From: Candidatus Saccharimonadota bacterium
GTDB taxonomy: Bacteria > Patescibacteriota > Saccharimonadia > Saccharimonadales > Saccharimonadaceae
Length of the DNA: 24,000 bases
Assembly (NCBI GenBank): GCA_018064165.1
Contig: JAGOZV010000001.1
Span: 7,767-31,766 of the forward strand
Direction of reading: 5' to 3'
Positions 3,615 to 16,036 of this stretch are shown here, piece after piece (position 1 is the first letter of the stretch; every line of letters begins with the position of its first letter). A program made the translations under genes and the position numbers. The notes beneath the pieces are model-generated. The model was not told where the DNA came from and made no database searches. It was given only the letters and a program-made list of their open reading frames with translations.

Positions 3615-3992
3615 ATGAAAAAAATAGTATTAAATTCACTGGGTACAATGGTTATGGTAATTGGTTCTATGATTTATTTGAACAATCCTGTAAATGCAAT
3701 TGTTCTATCGGATAACTGTCCAACTGGAGGATCTTCAAGTGTTTGTGCCTCGGCAAGCCCTAAAGATGACTTAGGCGCAATTATTAAACAAATAACAAAC
3801 GTAATGTTCTTTATTATTGGTGCTATAGCTGTTGTGATGATTATATACTCAGGTATTAGATATACGACCTCTGCGGGAAATCCAGCAGGTGTTACGGCAG
3901 CAAAAAATTCATTAATATATTCTATTGTGGGGCTTGTTGTAGCTATTTTAGCTTACGCTATTGTTAATTTTGTAGTCACCCGAATAGGATGA
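3615..3992 (+). CDS. VirB2/TrbC-like T4SS pilin paralog 3
   Basis: RBS AGGTAGG. Signal peptide ends ...NNPVNA|I, followed by a Cys-pair variable segment (DNCPTGGSSSVCASA). The conserved core is FFIIGAIAVVMIIYSGIRYTTSAGNPAGVTAAKNSLIYSIVGLVVAILAYAIVNFVV. Confidence 0.7.
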   Translation: MKKIVLNSLGTMVMVIGSMIYLNNPVNAIVLSDNCPTGGSSSVCASASPKDDLGAIIKQITNVMFFIIGAIAVVMIIYSGIRYTTSAGNPAGVTAAKNSLIYSIVGLVVAILAYAIVNFVVTRIG

Positions 3993-4022
3993 TATACTAT
4001 TTAAAAAGAAAAGGATGAAAAA

Positions 4023-4415
4023 ATGTCAAATAAATTAAAAAGTATTCTTATTAGTACATTAATGGTCGCAGTTATGGTTTTTGGCGTGTCTATAATATAT
4101 CAAACAGGAAATACTGAAATAGCAGGTGCAATTAATAGCGAAATAACAAGTGGAATGAATGCTACTTCTGCAGGTACTTCAACACCAACAGACGCTAATG
4201 TTGTAATAAAGAATGTAACCAATATAATGTTCTTTATTATTGGTGCAGTAAGCGTTATTATGCTTATTTACGGAGGCATCAGGTATACTACATCAGGTGG
4301 CAATACAAATAGTGTCACGGCAGCAAAAAATACTGTCATATATTCTATTGTAGGATTAGTTATATCAATTCTAGCTTATGCAATTGTAAACTTTGTTGTA
4401 ACCAATATAAAATAA
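4023..4415 (+). CDS. VirB2/TrbC-like T4SS pilin paralog 4
   Basis: RBS AAAGGA. It has a signal/anchor sequence and then a variable Ser/Thr-rich segment. The core is FFIIGAVSVIMLIYGGIRYTTSGGNTNSVTAAKNTVIYSIVGLVISILAYAIVNFVV. Confidence 0.7.
   Translation: MSNKLKSILISTLMVAVMVFGVSIIYQTGNTEIAGAINSEITSGMNATSAGTSTPTDANVVIKNVTNIMFFIIGAVSVIMLIYGGIRYTTSGGNTNSVTAAKNTVIYSIVGLVISILAYAIVNFVVTNIK
4233..4333 (+). repeat. 101-bp block shared with 4683..4783 (1 mismatch) inside pilin paralog 4
   Basis: Base-by-base comparison at a constant offset of 450 bp shows identity over 4233..4304 and 4306..4333. The single difference is A/G at 4305/4755. Flanking coding sequence of the two genes is only roughly 70-75% identical by eye. 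Confidence 0.9.
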
Positions 4416-4472
4416 TTGATTTATGAGATTGTATCTGTTATAAATAATAGTAACGAAAGGAATAAGATATAA

Positions 4473-4871
4473 ATGTCAACAAGATTAAAACAAATTTTAT
4501 CAAGCCTGTTAATAATACCCATAATGGCATTGGGCGTATCAGCTGCTTTACAGATTAATAATGTTAATGTAGTTAGAGCGACCGAAATGACATTAAGTGG
4601 TGGAGTAAGTAGTAGTCAAGGAGACGACGTCCCACAAGATTTAGCTGGCGAGGTCTTTAAAAATGTAGTAAATATTTTACTATTTATTATTGGTGCAGTA
4701 AGCGTTATTATGCTTATTTACGGAGGCATCAGGTATACTACATCAGGTGGCAATGCAAATAGTGTCACGGCAGCAAAAAATACAATAATGTACTCTATTA
4801 TAGGTCTAGTTGTTGCTATTTTAGCTTTTGCGGTTGTTCAGTTTGTTGTGAATCAAGTAATGGACTCATAA
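4473..4871 (+). CDS. VirB2/TrbC-like T4SS pilin paralog 5
   Basis: RBS GAAAGGAA. It has a signal/anchor sequence and then a variable segment. The core is LFIIGAVSVIMLIYGGIRYTTSGGNANSVTAAKNTIMYSIIGLVVAILAFAVVQFVV. It is followed by a strong terminator. Confidence 0.7.
   Translation: MSTRLKQILSSLLIIPIMALGVSAALQINNVNVVRATEMTLSGGVSSSQGDDVPQDLAGEVFKNVVNILLFIIGAVSVIMLIYGGIRYTTSGGNANSVTAAKNTIMYSIIGLVVAILAFAVVQFVVNQVMDS
4683..4783 (+). repeat. Partner copy of the 101-bp block (inside pilin paralog 5)
   Basis: See 4233..4333. Confidence 0.9.
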
Positions 4872-7850: not shown

Positions 7851-7927
7851 GCACCCGTAGCTCAGCTGGATAGAGCGTCGGCTTGCGGAGCCGAAGGCCA
7901 TAGGTTCGAATCCTGTCGGGTGTACCA
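7851..7927 (+). tRNA. tRNA-Arg (anticodon GCG), CCA encoded; integration target of the adjacent element
   Basis: Manual fold, 77 nt: GCACCCG-TA-GCTC-AGCTGGATA-GAGC-G-TCGGC-TT GCG GA-GCCGA-AGGCC-ATAGG-TTCGAAT-CCTGT-CGGGTGT-A-CCA. The backbone closely resembles bacterial tRNA-Arg(ACG), but position 34 is G. Pair 1:72 is G-U. Confidence 0.85.
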
Positions 7928-9544
7928 TACTTGAATTAGAGACGCTATTGCGTCTTTTTTCATCTGTTCTGGATAGGTTTGGACCTTCAAGAACTGCTTT
8001 TCAAGAGATGGATACTTTTCAACTAGTGGAGTTAGATATTCTATAGGCTCAAACAGTAGTACGCCATCTTTCAGTAATAGGTTTTGACCAATAATGCTCA
8101 AGACTTCTTTCTTTTTTAAGTCATTATCACTTTCGAAGTCATATTTAGCATATCGTGCGAAATTAAAGTACTTCTCTAGCAGTTGACGTTGACGCTTGTT
8201 TGAGTTCTCCTGGTCATCAAATTGACCCCTCAATGTAATAAGCCTGTCTTCAAGCTCTTGCTTCTCGGATTTATAAAAAGTTTCGTCAATCATACCTTTA
8301 TATAAAGCACGTTGTAGTTTGTTCACCTCAGCTTCTGTATTTTTAATAGCTTTCATCTGAGTCTCGATTACTTTTTCTTGCTTCTCTGCTTCATCTTCGT
8401 GGAACTCGTCTAAATACTCACAAGTCCATTTGAAGAAGTCTTCAATAATCGTATACTTGCTAATCTCATTTCGAATAGCTTTGGTTAAATCTTGTGGAGT
8501 TATCCTGCTAACGGTCATTGTCTGCGAGCATTCAGAGTACTTCTTTTTTCGAGTACAGTAACAGTATTCGTATGTATGTACGTTTCCATTCTTCTGTTTC
8601 TTGACTATTTTAGAATATGTAATCAGGCAACCGCATTCTCCACACTTAACTAGACCACGATATGGGAATGGGTCATCTAGGGCTATCTTTTCTTCTGGTC
8701 GAGGCTGGTTTGCCCGACCTATCATTCCTTGCACTTGTCGAAACTCCTCTGGTGTAATCATAGGCGAATGTTTACCTTCTGTGTGGTAGATTCCAGAGAA
8801 GCGAATAGCACCCATATAGAAAGGATTCTTAAACATTAAATACAGTCCAGATACTGACAGTGGTTTATTTCCAGATTTTTTACGTTTAGGAGTTTTAAGC
8901 CCCCACTCTTTATCAGCAATTCTTGCTATTTGACTAACAGAGTATTGACCCGTAAGGGCGTAGTCCCACATTCTTCGCACTAGTGCATATCTAGCGTCAT
9001 CAATGACGATTACATTGACATCACTGAACTCGCTTTCTTTCGCATTCTTGTAGCCTATTGGAACTCTGCCAGGATAATAGCCATTTTTAGCCCTTTGCGA
9101 CATTCGGTCTTTTACAATTATTGATAAATCACGACTAAACTGAGTATCTTGAGCTGCGTCTATGCTAAATATAAGGGCGTTATCTTCTGGAAGGTAGTTT
9201 TTATCCTTGGTAATAATAGCTTTAAGTTTGCCATCAAACATTAGCTGCTGGATAACTCCACTCTCTTTTGGATTACGAGCTAAGCGATTAGATTTATAGG
9301 TAAGAATAGCGTTTATATTACCTTTTTCTATTTGTTCGATAAGCTCATCAAACTTTATCCGCTGGTCTGGTATCTTTGCAGATTTAGATTCCTTATATAT
9401 CGCTTTTTTGACGATACGATATTCTCTTGCTTCTGCAATTTCGGTCATTGTTTCTAGTTGGTCATCTAGTGACGCAATTTGTTTGTCTTCGCTTTCGTTA
9501 GACTTTCTTGCGTAAAGTCCGTATTTCAGTTGTTCTAAGTTCAT
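7862..9544 (-). CDS. Large serine recombinase (integrase)
   Basis: The catalytic N-domain is recognisable: YARKSNESEDKQIASLDDQ...YKSNRLARN. A recombinase domain, a Cys-rich zinc ribbon (CGECGCLITYS...YEYCYCTRKKKYSECS) and a coiled-coil-like tail follow. I prefer ATG 9544 (MNLEQLKYGLYARKS, GGAAAA upstream) to the track start 9592. The last ~20 codons run antisense through the tRNA-Arg gene, so the stop at 7862 is host-derived. Confidence 0.85.
   Translation of the reverse strand: MNLEQLKYGLYARKSNESEDKQIASLDDQLETMTEIAEAREYRIVKKAIYKESKSAKIPDQRIKFDELIEQIEKGNINAILTYKSNRLARNPKESGVIQQLMFDGKLKAIITKDKNYLPEDNALIFSIDAAQDTQFSRDLSIIVKDRMSQRAKNGYYPGRVPIGYKNAKESEFSDVNVIVIDDARYALVRRMWDYALTGQYSVSQIARIADKEWGLKTPKRKKSGNKPLSVSGLYLMFKNPFYMGAIRFSGIYHTEGKHSPMITPEEFRQVQGMIGRANQPRPEEKIALDDPFPYRGLVKCGECGCLITYSKIVKKQKNGNVHTYEYCYCTRKKKYSECSQTMTVSRITPQDLTKAIRNEISKYTIIEDFFKWTCEYLDEFHEDEAEKQEKVIETQMKAIKNTEAEVNKLQRALYKGMIDETFYKSEKQELEDRLITLRGQFDDQENSNKRQRQLLEKYFNFARYAKYDFESDNDLKKKEVLSIIGQNLLLKDGVLLFEPIEYLTPLVEKYPSLEKQFLKVQTYPEQMKKDAIASLIQVWYTRQDSNLWPSAPQADALSS
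7918..7927 (+). repeat. Left direct repeat (attL core), equal to the 3' end of tRNA-Arg
   Basis: GGGTGTACCA, identical to 15883..15892. Confidence 0.7.
7940..7960 (+). terminator. Element-borne terminator now serving tRNA-Arg
   Basis: Hairpin AGACGC-TATT-GCGTCT followed by TTTTTT, starting 13 nt after the tRNA CCA end. It lies inside the 3' tail of the antisense recombinase ORF. Confidence 0.7.
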
Positions 9545-9667
9545 AGTTTTCCTATCTATATTATATAACTTTATTAGTATTATGTTAAACAATTAGTTTA
9601 TGTTTATAGAGGTGGTGGTCTACACTGTGGGATTAAGTGAGTGAAGCAAAAATGTATACACCTATAA

Positions 9668-10708
9668 CTAATCATTTTTTGCGGCACTCGGCTCGTCAGA
9701 GGGTAAATAGTATTTATAAGAATTACGCCCACCAGGTAGTACTCTTACCATCTCTGTACGAGCTAGCTCATCTAGGCAGTCGCTAATCTTTTTATCACCA
9801 CCTTTGAACCCATCTGTCTTAATTTGTGCTACAAGCTGCCTTTTAGATAATCCAGGATATAACCCTACTGCTTCTACAATTTCTTTCAGCTGTTCATTGT
9901 GTCGGTCTGCTGACGACTTTCCTTCGCCTACATATTCAAACTCTGTAGCATTCTCGTGAAACCTCAGTTCAAATGGGGCTGGCTCCCAAATATCTCTATT
10001 CTTGGTTTGTGTAAGTCTTACGAACTCGCTTTGACCAACACGGTTTACTGCAATGTGACAATCTGCGGCAGCTAAAATGTCGGAAGAACCACGCATTTCC
10101 ATTGCTGGATTGCTTTGCCCTGCGACACCTTTTCGGTTGTGGTGCAGAATCAATACTGCAAGTCCTGTATCCGCCAACTGCCTATAGCAGTCCATAAGCG
10201 TAGCCATATCACCAGAAGCGTTTTCATCAGCATTATTGAAGCGGGTAAAGGAATCAAATATAACTAAGCCAATTTCTTTTTCTTTAGCTTCTTTTGCGAT
10301 TGCGTCTACATATAAATGGTTCATCTTATAGCCAATTCTGGAAGTAAAATGAATCTCTGTATTTTCAGAAGCTCCCATTTGTTTGAACCGCTTTTGTAGT
10401 CTCTGTCGTCCACTCTCTTCATCAATAACCATTACCCCCATCTGTTTAGAAGGGAAATGTCCAAACACACTCTCACCCTGAGCAACTTTCACTGCCATCT
10501 CCATATATAGCCAAGTTTTGAAACTTCCAGGTGAGCCTGAGATGATTGTTACTCCCTCGGCTGGTATTAAGCCTTCTATAGCCCAAACTTCTGGCGGAAA
10601 CTCCTCTAGCAACAAATCGCTCAATCGTTCAGTAGAGAGCCTTAGCTGGCCTGTCTGTGTACCTTTTTCCCAAAGCTCTTTGTATCGGTTGCGATTTGGA
10701 GAGGTCAT
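9668..10708 (-). CDS. RepA-like / AAA_25-type RecA-fold ATPase with a C-terminal winged-helix domain (element replication or helicase-loader candidate)
   Basis: Walker A is IISGSPGSFKT and Walker B is LVIFDSF. The sequence LILHHNRK resembles RepA/DnaB-like ATPases of plasmids and integrated elements. The C-terminal LSKRQLVAQIK...ISDCLDELARTEMVRVL looks winged-helix. Confidence 0.65.
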   Translation of the reverse strand: MTSPNRNRYKELWEKGTQTGQLRLSTERLSDLLLEEFPPEVWAIEGLIPAEGVTIISGSPGSFKTWLYMEMAVKVAQGESVFGHFPSKQMGVMVIDEESGRQRLQKRFKQMGASENTEIHFTSRIGYKMNHLYVDAIAKEAKEKEIGLVIFDSFTRFNNADENASGDMATLMDCYRQLADTGLAVLILHHNRKGVAGQSNPAMEMRGSSDILAAADCHIAVNRVGQSEFVRLTQTKNRDIWEPAPFELRFHENATEFEYVGEGKSSADRHNEQLKEIVEAVGLYPGLSKRQLVAQIKTDGFKGGDKKISDCLDELARTEMVRVLPGGRNSYKYYLPSDEPSAAKND

Positions 10709-10857
10709 TTCCTAGCTCCATAATTCGGTTGTGTTAAGTAGACTAGGCGTATCAAAGCCATTCCATCTACGATTGCTTTTTGTTTACTTATCTTCTTGCC
10801 GAAGTTTTTCTTGTAGAGTACTTGAAACTCTTTTATTTGCTTTTCTTTTAACTGCAT
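10705..10857 (-). CDS. Small (50 aa) basic hypothetical protein, translationally coupled to the RepA-like gene
   Basis: Below the ORF-track size cut-off; hand-translated as MQLKEKQIKEFQVLYKKNFGKKISKQKAIVDGMALIRLVYLTQPNYGARK*. AGGTGG lies 7 nt upstream of the ATG (10857..10855). Its TGA overlaps the ATG of the next gene (ATGA at 10708..10705). Confidence 0.55.
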   Translation of the reverse strand: MQLKEKQIKEFQVLYKKNFGKKISKQKAIVDGMALIRLVYLTQPNYGARK

Positions 10858-11148
10858 ATTTTTACCACCTGTTACTCTAATTTTTGACGCACTTAACCAG
10901 CCCAGTCGTGGATTGAATCCAACTAAGTTAAGGCAATTAGAATAGAATGCTTACAAAGTTATTCGTAAACGATTACTAATTATTATTTGTGACTGTTTTA
11001 CTTCTTCTCTATATCTTTAAGATGTTTCTCCCTTTGTTTATTGGTTTTCTGTCGTTAGCTTTTCTTATGTGACTGCTGTTGAATCGTATATGTATGGTGA
11101 TTCGTTAGTCGCTTGCTGAAAAACTAAGTTCCACTATAGGGAGGGGGC

Positions 11149-11187
11149 TGTTAGGACTTAGCAATAACTTGTTAGGATATGTTAGTA
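11149..11187 (+). repeat. Iteron-like direct repeats TGTTAGGA / TGTTAGGA / TGTTAGTA
   Basis: Copies start at 11149, 11170 and 11180, a spacing of 21 and 10 bp (helical phase). They lie in a 390-bp non-coding stretch next to the rep-like operon. Confidence 0.45.
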
Positions 11188-11202
11188 ACAGATGTAAAAA
11201 AC

Positions 11203-11228
11203 GAAAAAACCGCCGTATTACGGGCGGT
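11203..11228 (-). terminator. Rho-independent terminator of the 11248..11754 gene
   Basis: The minus strand reads ACCGCCCGTAATACGGCGGT followed by TTTTTTCGTTTTTT, beginning about 20 nt after the stop codon. Confidence 0.8.
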
Positions 11229-11247
11229 ATGTTCAAGTTCAGTTATA

Positions 11248-11754
11248 TTAGTTTCGAGTGATTCTCAGACGATATTCGTCATTAACGGAAGTTCGTTCTT
11301 TACTGCGTTTGAATAAATCAGTTTTTAATCCAAGCTTCCTACCTTTATCATTTAAGCGTCGAACAGCTTGTTCTACGCCTCTTCGGGATTCTTTAAGTTT
11401 TGCAAGAGATACGGCATTATCTCTAGCTTCAAACACTGCATAGTCGTCAATATATTTATTAGGAGAGTTGAATGTTATTTTACATACATAGTGTTCAAGA
11501 GATTTTGGTTCAATTCTTATTTTATTATCGCCTGAATGGAGTTCGGTTTCTTTCAGGTCATACCAAATAGAGTTCTTCAAGAGAGACTTTGCGGCTATGT
11601 TATTCTTCCTTTTCTTATAAAGGATTGGTGCAAAATACCAAACCGCCATACCTAAAGCCATAAGGAAAAGAATTGCGTACACTACAAGAAAGATATTATT
11701 AAACTCAGGGTCTACTTCTATCTGCGGTGTATTGAATGCAAAGTATTTATTCAT
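11248..11754 (-). CDS. Hypothetical N-terminally membrane-anchored protein; C-terminal basic domain possibly DNA-binding
   Basis: One TM helix is visible (FLVVYAILFLMALGMAVWYFAPIL). The C-terminal part, IRIEPKSLEHYVCKITF...SRRGVEQAVRRLNDKGRKLGL, is loosely reminiscent of OmpR/CadC-type winged helices. This is a weak call. Confidence 0.45.
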   Translation of the reverse strand: MNKYFAFNTPQIEVDPEFNNIFLVVYAILFLMALGMAVWYFAPILYKKRKNNIAAKSLLKNSIWYDLKETELHSGDNKIRIEPKSLEHYVCKITFNSPNKYIDDYAVFEARDNAVSLAKLKESRRGVEQAVRRLNDKGRKLGLKTDLFKRSKERTSVNDEYRLRITRN

Positions 11755-11876
11755 AGCTATTTATATTGTAAGCGATTTGGATATTCTGACGGTGATTTCG
11801 TTATATGTAAGAAATTGAAAAAGCTATTCTCTCTATAATAAGAGTAGAGATAAAACAAATATAAACAGGAGTTTTT

Positions 11877-12200
11877 ATGGTTAATAAAAAACCAATAGGT
11901 AGACCACAAAAAGTTAATTATCAGATTATAAGTAAATTGGAGGACTCATTGCAGTACGGGTCTACTATTTCAGAAGCTTGTTACTACGCTGGAATTAGTA
12001 GGGATACATTTTACCGTTACTTCCGTGAAGATAGAATCTTTGCTGAAAAAATGGAACTTGCACGAAATAAGCTGCTAACAATCGCTAAATCAAATGTTAG
12101 TAGAGCGATAATAGAAGGTGATTATGAGAGCAGTTTATGGCTATTAGAAAAGGTCGTTACTCCCTCTCTAGCTATTGCTGACGAAGTGCCGAGGGTATAA
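11877..12200 (+). CDS. Small HTH protein, phage small-terminase-like / resolvase-type HTH
   Basis: RBS AGGAG. The sequence reads IGRPQKVNYQIISKLEDSLQYGSTISEACYYAGISRDTFYRYFREDRIFAEKMELARNK...SSLWLLEK. The order GRP.K, then HTH, then ..F....AR......, then WLLEK is the layout I associate with phage TerS-like HTH proteins. Confidence 0.5.
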   Translation: MVNKKPIGRPQKVNYQIISKLEDSLQYGSTISEACYYAGISRDTFYRYFREDRIFAEKMELARNKLLTIAKSNVSRAIIEGDYESSLWLLEKVVTPSLAIADEVPRV

Positions 12201-12203
12201 ATA

Positions 12204-12695
12204 ATGGAAGAGTACGAGTTTTTCTATGCCGATATTGAAGCAGATTCGATATTTCTAAGTAGGTATAACGTAGGAGATTTTATACACGCTAATAATGGCG
12301 TAGTAGCTTCTAGGCTCAAGGGAGGTTTACTGACGAACTGTAATGTACGATTCTCCTTCGTGCCTCACCCACAAGGATTTTTAGGTTACAGAGTTGAAGA
12401 TGAAGATTGGAAAAATCAACAACTATTTATTTTTGACAAAGACTGGCGTTTCAAAGTTGAAGACAGGTTCTTTTACGATGGCGTTTTTCAAATCTTAATG
12501 TCGCATATAGATTGGGAGGACTTTGGTGAGAAAAAAATTATCGAAGCTGCTAGAAAAGACTTCAAGAAGCTTTATAAACAACCGCCTGTAGATGTTCTAA
12601 ATAATGTGGAATGGAAGCGAAGAGTTAGGAAAGTTCCTGGTGTTGATGGGAAGAACAGTCCCTACAAAGGTTTTCTGACAATGTATTGGAAATAG
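12204..12695 (+). CDS. Hypothetical protein (no recognisable family)
   Basis: 163-aa ORF starting 3 nt after the preceding stop, with GAGGG 9 nt upstream. It looks soluble and is Trp/Phe-rich. Confidence 0.5.
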   Translation: MEEYEFFYADIEADSIFLSRYNVGDFIHANNGVVASRLKGGLLTNCNVRFSFVPHPQGFLGYRVEDEDWKNQQLFIFDKDWRFKVEDRFFYDGVFQILMSHIDWEDFGEKKIIEAARKDFKKLYKQPPVDVLNNVEWKRRVRKVPGVDGKNSPYKGFLTMYWK

Positions 12696-12742
12696 CCTAT
12701 GTAACGTCACTGATAATTATTATTTGACTGTCAGATTAACAG

Positions 12743-12961
12743 CTAAATATCTTTAAATAAGTCTGCTATATCTACTTTCAATGAGCTTGCAATCTTATTT
12801 AATGTACCGAGTCTAGCCCACCGCTTACCAGTTTCGATATATGCAATTGCAACAACACTCATTCCAATACTTTCCGCAAGCCGTTGCTGTGTTAAGCCTT
12901 TACTCTTCCGTACCAATGCTACACGCTTGCCAAATGTTTTCATCAATTCGTTTTCATTCAT
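12743..12961 (-). CDS. XRE-family helix-turn-helix transcriptional regulator
   Basis: Classic Cro/CI-type HTH: LTQQRLAESIGMSVVAIAYIETGKRWARLGTLNKIASSLKV. It is divergent from the 13157 operon. Confidence 0.85.
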   Translation of the reverse strand: MNENELMKTFGKRVALVRKSKGLTQQRLAESIGMSVVAIAYIETGKRWARLGTLNKIASSLKVDIADLFKDI

Positions 12962-12974
12962 ATCATAAGCGTAA

Positions 12975-13015
12975 AATAATAAACAGATAGTTACATAAAC
13001 TAGCTGTTTATTATT
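12975..13015. promoter_or_regulatory. Long inverted repeat / hairpin 14 nt upstream of the XRE start (candidate operator)
   Basis: AATAATAAACAG (12975..12986) and CTGTTTATTATT (13004..13015) are perfect 12-bp complements. Pairing continues inward (ATAGTT/AACTAG, one mismatch), leaving a 5-nt loop. Confidence 0.5.
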
Positions 13016-13156
13016 ACTTAATTAACGGGGGTTGTACTGTTATATAAAAAGTATTGATAAATAGTTAATGGTGTTTGCCCGCTAACAAATATATAGGTAT
13101 TGATGTTGTATAGTAAACGTAAATGATTAATTCAAAATGAAATTAGGAGCTTAGAA

Positions 13157-13801
13157 ATGTCATTCTTCGACAAGGTTAAAGATGCAAGTGATAAAGCTGG
13201 TAAATCAATTCAGAAGAGCTATCAAGAGCAACAGCAGAAGTCAGCCGAACTAAAGGATATTAGAGGGGCTAAACTAGACGCTCTAGCTGTGGAGTATATG
13301 GGTGGATACGGTGATGGTCGTAAAGCGAATGGCATTATTACTTTTTACCAAAACCAAACAGAGTTCAGTGCTGTTATGAGTACAAAGTTCACTATACCTA
13401 ATTCTCAAATCAAAGACATTCTTGTAGAAGGTAAAGATGAAGTTAATAGGCGTGTTACCGTAACCCGACTTATTGCAGTTGGTATATTTGCTTTTGCACT
13501 CAAGAAGAAGAGCAAAGACCAAGAATCGTATATCACGCTTGAACTTATTGATGGTCAAGAAGTTATTTTATTCGTGGAAAATAAAGCACCTATGGCTTTG
13601 AGAGCTAAATTAGCTAAGGTTATCTCGTCTGTTAAACAAGTTAGTGCATCACACCAAGTAGTCTCTGCTCAGCCGCAACCACGAGTAAGCATAGCTGATG
13701 AACTCGGTAAACTCGCTAACCTCAAAGAACAAGGTATATTGACCCAAGCTGAGTTTGATACAGAAAAAGCTAAAGTACTTAACGGTAGGACGTCTATATG
13801 A
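13157..13801 (+). CDS. SHOCT-domain protein with a PH-like/YokE-like N-terminal region
   Basis: RBS AGGAGC. The C-terminal ADELGKLANLKEQGILTQAEFDTEKAKVL is a textbook SHOCT motif. A hydrophobic segment is present at LIAVGIFAFAL. Confidence 0.7.
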   Translation: MSFFDKVKDASDKAGKSIQKSYQEQQQKSAELKDIRGAKLDALAVEYMGGYGDGRKANGIITFYQNQTEFSAVMSTKFTIPNSQIKDILVEGKDEVNRRVTVTRLIAVGIFAFALKKKSKDQESYITLELIDGQEVILFVENKAPMALRAKLAKVISSVKQVSASHQVVSAQPQPRVSIADELGKLANLKEQGILTQAEFDTEKAKVLNGRTSI

Positions 13802-14292
13802 CCCAACAAAATCAAAAGAAAGAAATGTCTAAAGGTATTTATTTCTTAATGTTGATTCCAATCCTTATGTTTGGAGTTCTAGGTGGACTTATTGGATTTA
13901 TGGGTGACAATCCCGACCCCCTATCAGGATTTTTATGGGGAGCGGGTATTGGGCTTGCAGTATGTGTCATAACATTCATCGGAATGTACGGATGGGAGTG
14001 GATTAAAAAGGAAGTTGAAAAAGGACGATTGCTACCGTTCATTATAATTGGCGTTATTGCTGCCGTTGTAGTCAGTGCATACTTGGGAATGAGTTTAGGC
14101 AGACCTTCTTGTGTGGAGTCGGATACAGATAATAGGGGCAGTAGCTGTGTCGAATATGCAGACGATGGCTACGAAGCTACCGGCGACCAGAAATGGGATA
14201 AGTTTTGGAGTACCCTGCCTATTACTGTTATCATCGCTTCTCTAATTGCTGTTATCGTTCGCAATCAGATGGAAAAAGATAAGAAAAAATAA
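13798..14292 (+). CDS. Hypothetical 4-TM membrane protein with a Cys-containing acidic loop
   Basis: Its start overlaps the upstream stop (ATGA at 13798..13801). TM segments are evident. The loop reads GRPSCVESDTDNRGSSCVEYADDGYEATGDQKW. Confidence 0.6.
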   Translation: MTQQNQKKEMSKGIYFLMLIPILMFGVLGGLIGFMGDNPDPLSGFLWGAGIGLAVCVITFIGMYGWEWIKKEVEKGRLLPFIIIGVIAAVVVSAYLGMSLGRPSCVESDTDNRGSSCVEYADDGYEATGDQKWDKFWSTLPITVIIASLIAVIVRNQMEKDKKK

Positions 14293-14340
14293 AATCTTAA
14301 AAGATTCTTATGGATACTCAACGACTATTTAGAGAGACAA

Positions 14341-14526
14341 TTGTTCGAGCAATACCACCCTATCGCTAACACAATCTTTCCTAACGGAACTTACTATGGA
14401 AGAAGTGTATTGGGGAACGAAGGAGAATCCATTTCAGTCTCTGAATGGAACCCTGATATGGTTACTGTCAAAATACATAAGGGTGAATTCAATGGATTCT
14501 CGGACGGCAAGGCTCACTTTCGTTAA
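14341..14526 (+). CDS. Possible small hypothetical protein (TTG start)
   Basis: 61-aa ORF in an otherwise empty 285-bp gap. It has a non-ATG start and no clear RBS. The alternative-frame ORF 14396..14581 is equally unsupported. Confidence 0.25.
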   Translation: MFEQYHPIANTIFPNGTYYGRSVLGNEGESISVSEWNPDMVTVKIHKGEFNGFSDGKAHFR

Positions 14527-14577
14527 GTATATAAATTGTATATATCTACACTATAAATTGTCTATTTTCTATCCAAC

Positions 14578-14904
14578 CTAATGCGTAGCGCCACTACCTA
14601 GTTCAATCATAAGCACACCTCCAATTACAACGGCAATACCAATGGACATAACTAACGTCAGATGTTCTTTGAATAGTAGTTTGCTAAAAATCGCAGTAAG
14701 AGCAACTCCTGACGCTGCCCATATACCGTAAGCGACACCGAGGGCCATACCGCTAGAAAGTGTAAAAATCAGCATTGTAAAGGCAATAGTATATCCAACC
14801 GCAACAGCTACCCACCATCGACGCTTGCCTGAGCTTGCCATCCGTAATGAAAGTGCTCCTGATACCTCGGCAATAATTGCACCGATAAGAAATAACCAAC
14901 CCAT
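14578..14904 (-). CDS. Small multidrug resistance (SMR/EmrE-family) transporter subunit, second of a pair
   Basis: 108 aa with 4 TM helices. The membrane-embedded Glu lies in GAIIAEVSGALSLR, and the GVAYGIWAASGVALTA motif is present. Its start overlaps the upstream stop (TAATG). Confidence 0.85.
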   Translation of the reverse strand: MGWLFLIGAIIAEVSGALSLRMASSGKRRWWVAVAVGYTIAFTMLIFTLSSGMALGVAYGIWAASGVALTAIFSKLLFKEHLTLVMSIGIAVVIGGVLMIELGSGATH

Positions 14905-15251
14905 TATACGTTTCCTTTCTCTTTTCTAGTTGCAGCCTGTGAACCTAATTCAATCATTAGTACGCCAGCAATAATTACTACAATCCCTAGTACCATAATC
15001 GAGGTTAAAGGTTCGTTAAAAATCAAATGTGATAGGAACGCAGTCATTGCTACACCACAAGCACCCCATATCCCATAAGCTACCCCTAGAGCCATACCTG
15101 ATTTAAGTGCTTTTGTTAAAAACACAAAAGCTAATACATAACCTATCAATACCACTATATAGAAAATTGAATTATCCATCCCTGCCTTCAATGAAAGTGT
15201 AGCTACTACTTCCGAAATGATAGCTCCGACTAGAAATATCCATTGTTTCAT
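14904..15251 (-). CDS. Small multidrug resistance (SMR/EmrE-family) transporter subunit, first of a pair
   Basis: 115 aa with 4 TM helices. Glu14 lies in GAIISEVVATLSLK, and GVAYGIWGACGVAMTA is present. The two adjacent, overlapping paralogs fit a paired (heterodimeric) SMR arrangement. Confidence 0.85.
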   Translation of the reverse strand: MKQWIFLVGAIISEVVATLSLKAGMDNSIFYIVVLIGYVLAFVFLTKALKSGMALGVAYGIWGACGVAMTAFLSHLIFNEPLTSIMVLGIVVIIAGVLMIELGSQAATRKEKGNV

Positions 15252-15772
15252 TATTTTACTCCTTCTTTTAGTATTTTCTCTGAGACGTCTAAGATTGACT
15301 GCCTCTCTTCGACACTTATGTTCAACATCCCCAAGCCTCTATCGAACCAAGCCCCATCAGCGATAAGTCGAACAGTCATCAATGCAGACCGCCTAGTAAT
15401 GTCCGTAATATCGTAAAAGTTGAACCAAGCTTCAATCTGTTTAGCCCATTTAGCGTAAAGCTCATCTTTTAATTTGTAGTCAGCCATAAAGGCGAAATCT
15501 GATGAGTCTATTTCGTCAGACATTGCATACCTAAGGTAAGTCATCATCCTGTCTTCGGCGTTAGGTTTAGCAGGAGTTGCGTCAAGCATTAATTGCCATC
15601 TTTCTACGACATCATTCACAAGACCCATCATAAGCGATTTTTTTGTAGGATAGTGATGCACTAGTCCTGCTTTAGTTAATCCTATATCACGAGCGACGGA
15701 ATCAAGCGAAACCGTTTCCCCGTTTTTTATACGTTCCTGTGCAGCTTTAATAATATCTTTTTTCTGAATCAT
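15251..15772 (-). CDS. TetR/AcrR-family transcriptional regulator
   Basis: N-terminal HTH: SLDSVARDIGLTKAGLVHHYPTKKSLM. Size is 173 aa. Its stop overlaps the first SMR start. Confidence 0.85.
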   Translation of the reverse strand: MIQKKDIIKAAQERIKNGETVSLDSVARDIGLTKAGLVHHYPTKKSLMMGLVNDVVERWQLMLDATPAKPNAEDRMMTYLRYAMSDEIDSSDFAFMADYKLKDELYAKWAKQIEAWFNFYDITDITRRSALMTVRLIADGAWFDRGLGMLNISVEERQSILDVSEKILKEGVK

Positions 15773-15775
15773 AAT

Positions 15776-15793
15776 ACCATACTACCGTATGGT
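15776..15793. promoter_or_regulatory. Palindrome ACCATAC-TACC-GTATGGT immediately upstream of the TetR start (candidate TetR operator)
   Basis: Perfect 7-bp arms, overlapped by a second palindrome CTACC-GTAT-GGTAG. It begins 4 nt upstream of the ATG at 15772. Confidence 0.5.
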
Positions 15794-15882
15794 AGGTTTA
15801 TTAACAATATAATCTTTGGACGGTATTTATTTATATCAAGTTACGATATTACTTGTAATGATGGTTTGAACTTCTTTAACTA

Positions 15883-15892
15883 GGGTGTACCA
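15883..15892 (+). repeat. Right direct repeat (attR core): displaced copy of the tRNA-Arg 3' end
   Basis: GGGTGTACCA followed by AATTAG, as at the left junction. Confidence 0.7.
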
Positions 15893-15896
15893 AATT

Positions 15897-15926
15897 AGTT
15901 TGCTATTTGAAAAAGCAAACTTTTTT
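15897..15926 (+). terminator. Rho-independent terminator, probably the original tRNA-Arg terminator displaced by the insertion
   Basis: Hairpin AGTTTGCT-ATTTGAAAA-AGCAAACT followed by TTTTTT, starting 5 nt after the repeat copy. Confidence 0.7.
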
Positions 15927-15946
15927 AATATATAATAAATATATCT

Positions 15947-16036
15947 GGAGAGGTGCAGGAGTGGTTGAACTGGCTTGTCTCGAAAACAAGTGAGCCGGCA
16001 ACGGTTCCGAGGGTTCGAATCCCTCTCTCTCCGCCA
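15947..16036 (+). tRNA. tRNA-Ser (anticodon CGA), CCA encoded
   Basis: Manual fold: GGAGAGG-TG-CAG-GAGTGGTTGAA-CTG-G-CTTGT-CT CGA AA-ACAAG, a long variable arm, GAGGG-TTCGAAT-CCCTC, TCTCTCC-G-CCA. TATAAT at 15931..15936 is a plausible -10. The 15836..16060 minus ORF is an antisense artefact. Confidence 0.9.

Follow-up and report, generated by a model that had tools for sequence, protein, structure and literature searches.

A tRNA-targeted integrative island of Saccharibacteria and its large serine recombinase, whose reading frame crosses the attachment site

The 24,000-nt stretch of Candidatus Saccharimonadota bacterium analyzed here (assembly GCA_018064165.1, contig JAGOZV010000001.1, positions 7,767 to 31,766; "the window" below) carries, at positions 7928 to 15892, what is very probably a site-specific integrative mobile island of Saccharibacteria driven by a large serine recombinase (LSR). 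The island lies directly behind a tRNA-Arg(GCG) gene, and the open reading frame (ORF) of its LSR runs across the junction into that gene. We have high confidence in the core of this description as read from the compared sequences, that is, in the island boundaries, the empty site, the presence in many divergent hosts, the use of three tRNA targets, the overlap of the LSR ORF with the attachment site attP, and the generality of this overlap across the LSR family.

The last 10 nt of the tRNA-Arg gene, GGGTGTACCA, occur exactly twice in the window, once at each border of the island, as the first-pass annotation had claimed; the chance expectation in shuffled sequence is 0.02 matches on average, and no shuffle gave two. 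That annotation had also predicted that deletion of the insert would leave a compact arrangement of tRNA-Arg, terminator, and tRNA-Ser(CGA) (15947-16036, ARAGORN), and had proposed a check for related contigs without the insertion. Exact-protein look-ups of two flanking host genes led to such empty sites in contigs L008 and L009. Most contigs of the window's population carry the insert; these two do not, and their flanks, 98-99.7% identical to the window, place them in the same population. They read GGTTCGAATCCTGTCGGGTGTACCA joined directly to AATTAGTTTGCTATTTGAAAAAGCAAACTTTTTT and on to tRNA-Ser(CGA), which is the window minus 7928..15892, with the order tRNA-Arg, AATTAG, a GCAAAC hairpin with its T-run, and tRNA-Ser(CGA), and nothing in between (junction sequence CCTGTCGGGTGTACCAAATTAGTTTGC). 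Their blastn alignments to the window stop at 7927 and restart at 15883, and because the two flank alignments overlap by precisely the 10-mer, the element measures 7,965 bp.

The tRNA-Arg gene is intact in empty and occupied contigs alike. The layout of the empty-site contigs identifies the terminator at 15897-15926 as the original one and the hairpin at 7938-7957, recovered by a terminator scan, as element-borne; the proposal of two terminators of different origin is thereby confirmed, and the whole segment 7928..7963 is absent from L008 and L009. The hexamer AATTAG, noted at first pass behind both copies of the 10-mer, does not survive as part of the att site: the sequence following CCA differs in nine other hosts, and its presence behind both copies in the window is a coincidence. 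A compositional difference between island and flanks is present and small, with GC of 0.381 in the element versus 0.344 and 0.366 in the flanks. Contig breaks or scaffold gaps occur at the two junctions in seven further contigs (L005, L010, L015, and L017-L020), as happens when an assembler meets sequence common to several genomes in one sample.

A search for related elements in other genomes, suggested at first pass, returned the same island in nine further loci, including the complete 1.08-Mb genome CP045921.1, at 98.5-99.8% nucleotide identity over 8 kb. Where their flanks can be aligned to the window, identity is 67-69%; other flanks give no alignment. The host proteins are likewise distant from their counterparts in the window (HIT 52-65%, valyl-tRNA synthetase 53%, and two neighbors 30-44% identical), whereas among six element proteins compared the XRE regulator is 90-100% identical and the other five 97-100%, with 100% the most frequent value. 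A near-identical element in hosts whose proteins are 30-65% identical points to recent horizontal spread. Exact copies of the island's TetR protein are found in 2181 collection blocks and of its AAA_25 protein in 614, and at least 1000 contigs have the exact 50-aa ORF. The host HIT protein and a 225-aa host protein are found in 241 and 106 blocks, respectively. Public phage and plasmid collections gave no DNA match to the element, and IMG/VR holds one weak relative of the LSR.

By its domain content the enzyme next to attL is a bona fide LSR, with Pfam matches to Resolvase (PF00239, 1.9e-12), Recombinase (PF07508, 4.5e-8), and Zn_ribbon_recom (PF13408, 5.7e-5). Residues Y11, R13, K14, and S15 are invariant in 25 homologues, as are C301, C304, C330, and C339. 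The ORF has no stop codon before the junction; it continues for 21 codons into the antisense strand of tRNA-Arg and stops in the D-loop (7862-7864), and since it ends inside the tRNA without a stop of its own, attP lies within the integrase gene. The integrated form has 560 residues and ends in WYT-RQDSNLWPSAPQADALSS, while the reconstructed excised form has 557 residues and ends in WYTLVKEVQTIITSNIVT, that is, in a 14-residue ending after the shared WYT (WYT-LVKEVQTIITSNIVT). Read on the minus strand, 7928..7963 encodes the LSR residues QMKKDAIASLIQV. The element-borne terminator with its T-run (7938-7963) is thus antisense within the LSR coding sequence and encodes KKDAIAS, where KK corresponds to the T-run, and a KK..A.ASL motif is conserved in the LSR family. 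This one stretch thus has three uses at once, as terminator, as att arm, and as coding sequence.

Most copies of the element have an intact LSR. A nonsense change from TAT to TAA at about 8012 (7980-7982 in L123) shortens it to 510 aa in three contigs from different samples (L123, L124, and L125), which suggests that some copies are losing integrase function. The 8,058-bp contig L123 was considered as an excised circle and proved to be the integrated form with this mutation. The 557-aa form is absent among the 15 members listed of the 142 in the LSR cluster.

The overlap between LSR and tRNA is, on the evidence of the loci compared, a general family trait. A scan of one genome per GTDB species gave more than 571 relatives, and the counts out of 80 loci below refer to the best of these. 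Almost all of these are from Patescibacteria (Saccharibacteria, Parcu-/Paceibacteria, Nomura-, Magasanik-, Falkow-, Uhr-, Berkel-, and Gracilibacteria, among others). The LSR ORF terminates within a convergent tRNA gene at 64 of the 80 loci, and these tRNA genes represent 11 isotypes: His (24), Asn (10), Trp (7), Arg (5), Gln (4), Ser (4), Tyr (3), Asp (2), Ile (2), Leu (2), and Glu (1). At the other loci the ORF mostly meets a contig end, a tRNA fragment, or an attP-type junction. Wherever the tRNA encodes CCA, which is the case in 57 loci, the LSR frame (frame 0) has Trp at this triplet, and the C-terminal tail "WYTRQDSNLRP..." can be aligned in homologues down to 40% identity, with Trp540 invariant. 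Convincing far-end att repeats were found in only a handful of the 80 loci (L024, L077, L084, and L095); a further candidate in L075 has no P-arm motif and was set aside as probably due to chance. Several family loci carry the labels Gammaproteobacteria, Nitrospinota, Bacteroidetes, or Methanosarcinaceae, and one NCBI copy of the exact 50-aa ORF (P0121) is labeled as a metagenome-assembled genome of Lactococcus raffinolactis; these are probably mis-binned contigs of the Candidate Phyla Radiation (CPR).

The more common element order in CPR genomes is a methyltransferase, a DUF5659 protein, a small ORF, a Toprim-type primase-like protein, two unknowns, and the LSR, and the window element is a variant of it with an AAA_25 replicase. 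The relative L024, whose LSR is 61% identical, is also located at a tRNA-Arg gene; within 7.7 kb it keeps AAA_25, the small ORF, and the TerS-like gene with its 163-aa partner, and its cargo is different.

In the hosts compared the element occupies tRNA-Arg(GCG), tRNA-Arg(TCG), or tRNA-Tyr(GTA), always at the 3′ end, and the junction always lies directly behind GGGTGTACCA in ten contexts with unrelated right flanks. The copy at tRNA-Tyr has CCCAGTACCA as attL and GGGTGTACCA as attR, and because the two differ, strand exchange is confined to GTACCA. The best dyad symmetry is centered on GT (7922-7923 and 15887-15888) in both reconstructed attP (11 of 24 positions, 10 of the inner 12) and reconstructed attB (9 of 24), and this GT at 7922-7923 is the putative crossover dinucleotide.

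The sequence outside this center appears to hold the recognition motif. The T-arm of tRNA-Arg lies at 7903-7911 (GGTTCGAAT), its GGTTCGAA starting 19 nt from the central GT, and the P arm of attP carries a T-arm mimic, whose GGTTTGAA starts 24 nt away. A loose likeness of the right-junction arm to the tRNA T-arm, already pointed out at first pass, is most simply explained in this way as a P-arm copy of the LSR motif displaced by 5 bp. In the family, T(C/T)G(A/G)AC is found 19-24 nt from antisense CCA (TGG) in 57 of 57 tRNA targets encoding CCA, and T(T/C)nn(A/G/C)AC is found at 23-29 nt in nine of 11 candidate P arms from unrelated members. For the Listeria integrase, Rutherford et al. (2013, PMC3783163) describe a zinc-ribbon-domain (ZD) motif that is shifted outward by 5 bp in attP relative to attB, and the position of the mimic, 5 bp further out than the T-arm, fits this displacement. 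We suggest that T-arm and P-arm mimic represent the outer recognition motif of the integrase itself, with the zinc-ribbon domain as its putative reader. The displacement is clear on the tRNA-side arm; the right arms have no comparable motif, and recognition seems to rest on the tRNA half of attB. This would also explain elements that enter the attL of a resident element. In L108 (2238-3900) two elements stand in tandem, with a second, frameshifted LSR that adjoins the right end of the element and is read in the direction of the core, and in L042, L059, and L092 family LSRs stand in chromosomal contexts with tails of attP type and not of tRNA type. Together with the free B′ arm, these suggest that attL can serve as a pseudo-attB.

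The two states of the LSR differ in how constrained their tails are. Across the family, the tail of the integrated state ranges from 2 to about 60 residues in length, depending only on where the antisense strand of the tRNA has its first stop, so the sequence of this tail is unlikely to matter. Excised-state tails share W-x-x-(I/V/L)-(V/I)-x-(D/E)-V-x-T in the window and in L024, L077, L084, L095, L042, L059, and L092. The constraint behind this motif may act at the protein level or at the DNA level, as part of the P arm, and the tail swap may have a regulatory role.

From these observations a mechanism can be proposed. The LSR would recombine the attP of a circular form (predicted junction TTCTTTAACTAGGGTGTACCATACTTGAATTAGAGACG) with a tRNA gene at its 3′ end. 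Two parts of the tRNA would be read by the enzyme, the universal T-arm (antisense TCGAAC) as the outer motif, through the zinc-ribbon domain, and the acceptor 3′ strand with CCA as the inner motif, and the P arm of the element would present the T-arm mimic 5 bp further from the crossover. Exchange would take place within GTACCA, most likely at GT (7922-7923), in which case only about five last nucleotides of the tRNA would be element-derived, and the element would supply a new terminator to the tRNA. Integration would at the same time swap the last ~17-20 residues of the LSR (WYT-LVKEVQT...) for a tRNA-encoded tail (WYT-RQDSNLWPS...), with the stop codon provided by the antisense tRNA. Catalysis of integration by the LSR is implied by the precise junctions in many hosts, and the element would also be able to excise and replicate.

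Several points weigh against this account of an active, LSR-driven island. The empty sites come from slightly different strains and could be sites that were never occupied rather than excision products. The exact 24-mer of the predicted attP junction is absent from JGI metagenome contigs, and no circular contig was seen. No recombination directionality factor was identified on the element, and the 50-aa ORF, the candidate for such a role, has no match to a known one in Pfam, PHROG, or PDB. The zinc-ribbon match of the LSR (23.8 bits) is just below the Pfam threshold of 25.3, although PF13408 is precomputed for many homologues. Overall half-site symmetry is modest, and different hosts share no conserved sequence in the right arm of attB, which is unusual for characterized LSR attB sites.

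The LSR has the resolvase, recombinase, and zinc-ribbon architecture of the serine-integrase prophages and islands (phiC31, Bxb1, A118/LI, TP901-1, SPbeta, and SCCmec CcrAB/CcrC), and its reconstructed att sites resemble theirs in being short, with a small common core, a modest partial dyad symmetry, and, on the tRNA-side arm, a displacement of the putative outer motif by 5 bp as in the LI integrase model. The present element differs from them in that its target is a tRNA 3′ end and not a protein-coding or intergenic site, that the right arm of its attB is essentially free, and that its hosts are CPR bacteria. Islander-type tRNA islands share with it an intact tRNA gene at one end, restored by element sequence, a displaced 3′ fragment at the other, and an integrase adjoining the tRNA. 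They use a tyrosine integrase where this element uses a serine one, and its duplicated fragment is 10 nt, with about 5 nt of the tRNA element-derived. The Islander signature is thus present without the tyrosine integrase, as no tyrosine recombinase was found among the element ORFs or their Pfam matches. The Islander authors (2014, PMC4383910) recorded tRNA-gene targeting for tyrosine integrases only, with no serine integrase known to share it. A large LSR survey makes no mention of tRNA or of Patescibacteria, and no description of such elements in CPR bacteria was found in the searchable, non-subscription literature. The filamentous phiRSM phages of Ralstonia, said to have been described by Askora and colleagues in 2011, reportedly carry a serine-family recombinase that integrates at the 3′ end of a tRNA (tRNA-Ser) gene. 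The phiRSM enzyme, which belongs to an inovirus, is small and resolvase-like and lacks the recombinase and zinc-ribbon domains.

An integrase ORF that crosses attP has precedents among tyrosine recombinases. Integration of Mx8 alters the C-terminal region of IntP (Tojo et al. 1996, as cited in PMC4383910), and integrases of the SSV family have the recombination site inside their own ORF (PMC7253208). The likeness of Mx8 IntP/IntX and SSV to the 557-aa form that becomes a 560-aa form with a new tail is in the position of attP. Both precedents are tyrosine recombinases. In SSV, integration breaks the gene into two pieces, both inactive; here the change is limited to the last ~17-20 residues.

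The features of the island are collected in Table 1. The gene inventory given at first pass holds (LSR, AAA_25 with the overlapping 50-aa ORF, XRE, TerS-like helix-turn-helix protein, SHOCT protein, two SMR genes, and TetR), and so does the stated absence of capsid, tail, relaxase, and conjugation genes: Pfam, PHROG, and NCBIfam scans of the element proteins returned none of these, nor any lysis or type IV secretion system (T4SS) match. A conserved backbone makes up the left half of the element, with the LSR, AAA_25, 50-aa ORF, orf168, the pair of TerS-like gene and ADP-ribosyltransferase (ART)-like gene, and XRE, and the right half is exchangeable cargo.

Table 1. Features of the island and its attachment site, in window coordinates
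Feature	Position	Strand	Basis
tRNA-Arg(GCG), integration target	7851..7927	+	ARAGORN; Rfam tRNA 68.5 bits
LSR, 560 aa in the integrated state	7862..9544	-	Pfam Resolvase, Recombinase, Zn_ribbon_recom; PHROG integrase 4.8e-59
attL core GGGTGTACCA	7918..7927	+	Two copies; 10-bp overlap of empty-site flank alignments
P′ arm of attP and element-borne replacement tRNA terminator	7928..7963	+	Hairpin 7938-7957 and T-run (terminator scan)
RepA-like AAA_25 ATPase	9668..10708	-	Pfam AAA_25 1.1e-34; PHROG primase/helicase families
50-aa ORF, overlapping the AAA_25 start	10705..10857	-	Most conserved partner family of these LSRs
Non-coding region, 390 bp	10858..11247		No ORF
orf168, 168-aa protein with hydrophobic N-terminal stretch (by eye)	11248..11754	-	Without family match
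107-aa helix-turn-helix protein, TerS homologue	11877..12200	+	PHROG terS phrog_4102 8.8e-14
orf163, 163-aa protein, operon with TerS-like gene	12204..12695	+	Predicted ART-like fold
XRE/Cro-CI-type repressor, 72 aa	12743..12961	-	Pfam HTH_3 2.4e-13; PHROG repressor families
SHOCT-domain protein (13157-13801) and 164-aa membrane protein (13798-14292)	13157..14292	+	Pfam SHOCT 1.8e-7
Paired SMR efflux genes, 108 and 115 aa	14578..15251	-	Pfam Multi_Drug_Res; NCBIfam EbrA/B, Qac SMR
TetR-family regulator	15251..15772	-	Pfam TetR_C_28 2.2e-9
P arm of attP with T-arm mimic GGTTTGAAC at 15863-15871	15853..15882	+	Mimic 24 nt from central GT versus 19 for T-arm
attR core, second GGGTGTACCA, right element end	15883..15892	+	Host sequence diverges straight after in ten contexts
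Original tRNA-Arg terminator, displaced host DNA, B′ side	15897..15926	+	Directly after tRNA-Arg in L008 and L009

The AAA_25 protein is a putative replication initiator or helicase of the excised element. Members of the 50-aa ORF family occur at 65 of 81 loci. All of them stand upstream of the LSR, 64 on the same strand, and most directly precede the replicase; in the minimal elements L041, L087, and L092 the small ORF is directly upstream of the LSR. The 50-aa ORF has no Pfam, PHROG, or PDB profile match, and a homology search gave only near-identical sequences; its product may, hypothetically, be an accessory protein, a regulator, or a directionality factor. The adjoining non-coding region had been described as repeat-rich, which was not borne out: it contains no significant repeats, and both iterons and an RNA gene were discarded as candidates, the latter for want of an Rfam match. 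It is a possible replication origin and promoter region. The terminator of orf168 lies inside it (11228-11209, minus strand), and it tolerates an insertion sequence (IS) in L116. The orf168 gene itself is conserved in all copies of the element and not in L024, and its product has no Pfam, PHROG, NCBIfam, or PADLOC match.

The 107-aa TerS homologue, which also gives weak matches to excisionase helix-turn-helix domains, is 37-40% identical to the gene that immediately precedes those for TerL, portal, and MuF in pneumophage IPP26 and, at the same level, to a gene in 8-11-kb Streptococcus satellite prophages. Its partner orf163 has no sequence-family match. The AlphaFold2 model of orf163 (pLDDT 74.9, pTM 0.77) is similar in Foldseek to ART toxins (E ~3e-5, TM 0.43-0.50) and also to viral VIP2/MuF-ART proteins. 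Assignment as a RES/ParT-type toxin was rejected, the similarity being to ART at the fold level without a family match, and the protein is left as "ART-like". The pair of TerS-like gene and orf163 is conserved in L024.

The route by which the island passes between cells can be ranked only tentatively, with packaging by a helper phage first, natural transformation second, and the host T4SS third. Our leading guess, possible rather than probable and drawn from gene homology, is a satellite similar to the phage-inducible chromosomal islands (PICIs), which would be packaged by way of the TerS homologue. An integrase, an XRE repressor, AAA_25, and a TerS homologue are found together in 7,965 bp without structural matches, a satellite-like content that is based on homology only, with a gene order unlike that of known PICIs. 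The TerS homologue holds the TerS position of phage IPP26, and the AAA_25 domain is also present in the RepA encoded by Javan594, the one Streptococcus satellite examined. The ART-like fold of the TerS partner, often attached to phage MuF head proteins, likewise favors a phage-satellite lifestyle. PICIs and Streptococcus satellites such as Javan594 further resemble the island in their size of 8-10 kb, terminal integrase, small helix-turn-helix regulators, shared small-terminase family, lack of structural genes, and accessory cargo; they differ in having a tyrosine integrase and another gene order, and the TerS homologue of the island is shorter than the phage versions. The window element is at most a candidate member of this group.

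The packaging route meets several objections. No helper phage is known, and neither IMG/VR nor INPHARED contains a DNA or close-protein relative of the element, of the TerS-like protein, or of AAA_25. The TerS homologue has 107 aa versus 132-133 aa in phages, and it is present in only three of the 80 family loci. Given its ART-like operon partner, the predicted pair could be a toxin/regulator module instead of a packaging module.

Spread of an integrative plasmid-like element by natural transformation is, in our view, almost as likely, though again possible rather than probable. A multicopy circle released by lysis would be taken up through type IV pili and ComEC, re-circularized, and integrated by its own LSR, with no need for dedicated transfer genes. 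Saccharibacteria are documented to be naturally competent (Wang et al. 2023, summarized in PMC12857230). The element fits such a route in being small, with its own replicase and integrase and no relaxase, T4SS, or capsid genes; the near absence of the family from IMG/VR (one weak match) and the lack of a TerS homologue in most family members point the same way. This route leaves the conserved TerS-like gene unexplained, however, and free circles were not found when JGI metagenome contigs were searched with the attP 24-mer. Moreover, transformation imports single strands, from which the rebuilding of an intact 8-kb circle is inefficient.

It is improbable that the island is an integrative mobilizable element that leaves the cell as single-stranded DNA through the chromosomal conjugation-type T4SS of the host, with orf168, orf163, or AAA_25 acting as an unrecognized relaxase or initiator. 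RepA-like AAA_25 proteins do occur on mobilizable elements, and VirB4, TraC, PrgI, and T4SS-pilin genes are located next to the site on host contigs, a few kb upstream in the window. The T4SS of Patescibacteria shares homology with the conjugation machinery of monoderms, and the authors of that finding allow for highly divergent relaxases yet to be discovered (PMC12102498). Against this stand the lack of any recognizable relaxase, oriT, or coupling protein on the element in Pfam, PHROG, NCBIfam, and PADLOC searches, and the T4SS itself, which is chromosomal and essential and has presumably been recruited for functions other than conjugation, with relaxases rare in the phylum (PMC12857230, PMC12102498).

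That the island is an immobile remnant (a decayed prophage or fixed island whose 10-bp repeat is a relic, with empty-site lineages that never had the insert) would agree with the missing excised form in JGI metagenome contigs, the circulating 510-aa nonsense LSR variant, and the empty sites in slightly divergent strains, but it is scarcely credible and is already contradicted by the distribution data, with 98.5-99.8% identical copies in hosts with 30-65% identical core proteins, three tRNA genes, precise junctions, an intact LSR in most copies, and cargo that is being exchanged.

In the right half of the element, the SMR pair matches the EbrA/B and Qac models of NCBIfam with E-values of 1e-15 to 1e-18, far below the equivalog cut-offs, and is probably a heterodimeric pump of the EbrAB/Qac type, with substrates presumably of the kind that these pumps export. 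A perfect 8+8 palindrome, TACCATAC-TACC-GTATGGTA, at 15775-15794 immediately upstream of the TetR start codon is likely the TetR operator for a TetR-SMR-SMR operon. Other copies and relatives carry other genes in this part. In L111 and L115 (6320-7700), an ArsR regulator and a CadD cadmium transporter replace the block from SHOCT to TetR, with the SHOCT and membrane protein genes absent. L116 (300-6260) has an Hsp70-like gene and an IetA-like AAA ATPase (PADLOC 1.7e-34) with an IS (rve) insertion, and in L104 (7139-8522) CARF and SMODS genes adjoin the SHOCT gene. Comparison of these variants indicates that the SMR/TetR block is swappable cargo.

A wider reading would join these strands, although we consider it unlikely to be right as a whole. 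A CPR-wide LSR lineage would use the universal T-arm as its zinc-ribbon motif, and attP in its own 3′ end would record its state, with the conserved W-x-x-(I/V)-V-x-(D/E)-V-x-T tail when excised and an arbitrary tRNA-encoded tail when integrated. The swap, together with the 50-70-aa partner as directionality factor, would control integration versus excision, and the islands would be main vehicles of gene flow (biocide and metal resistance, defense) among ultra-small episymbionts.

The targeting of tRNA genes has been regarded as a distinguishing feature of tyrosine integrases. In the loci compared here it is shared by an entire serine-integrase family spread across the CPR, with a readable logic in which the T-arm would be the recognition motif and attP contains a mimic shifted by 5 bp. 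Serine integrases are the preferred enzymes of genome engineering, and a family with a half-defined universal target, the tRNA 3′ end, and a presumed natural activity in Patescibacteria offers candidate tools for these bacteria, which have only recently become genetically tractable. The element also provides direct sequence evidence of recent gene flow between distant Saccharibacteria, whose mobile elements are barely described in the searchable literature, with an SMR efflux pair, cadmium resistance, or defense genes as cargo.

Two further observations concern the neighborhood of the island. In L006 (1-3350, joining the window at 16031), another block of DNA abuts the HIT gene and replaces everything up to the last 6 nt of tRNA-Ser(CGA), with no tRNA detected there. 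It encodes a 569-aa protein, a 115-aa protein, and a metallophosphatase; the block proteins gave no informative matches, and the 569-aa protein has no family match. The block looks like a second, unrelated element at the neighboring tRNA, in which case the tRNA cluster would be an insertion hotspot. At about 3900-4860 of the window, VirB2-like T4SS_pilin genes are arranged in tandem, with two to four copies between contigs of the same population, and the repeat segments 4233-4405 and 4683-4856 are 86-88% identical.

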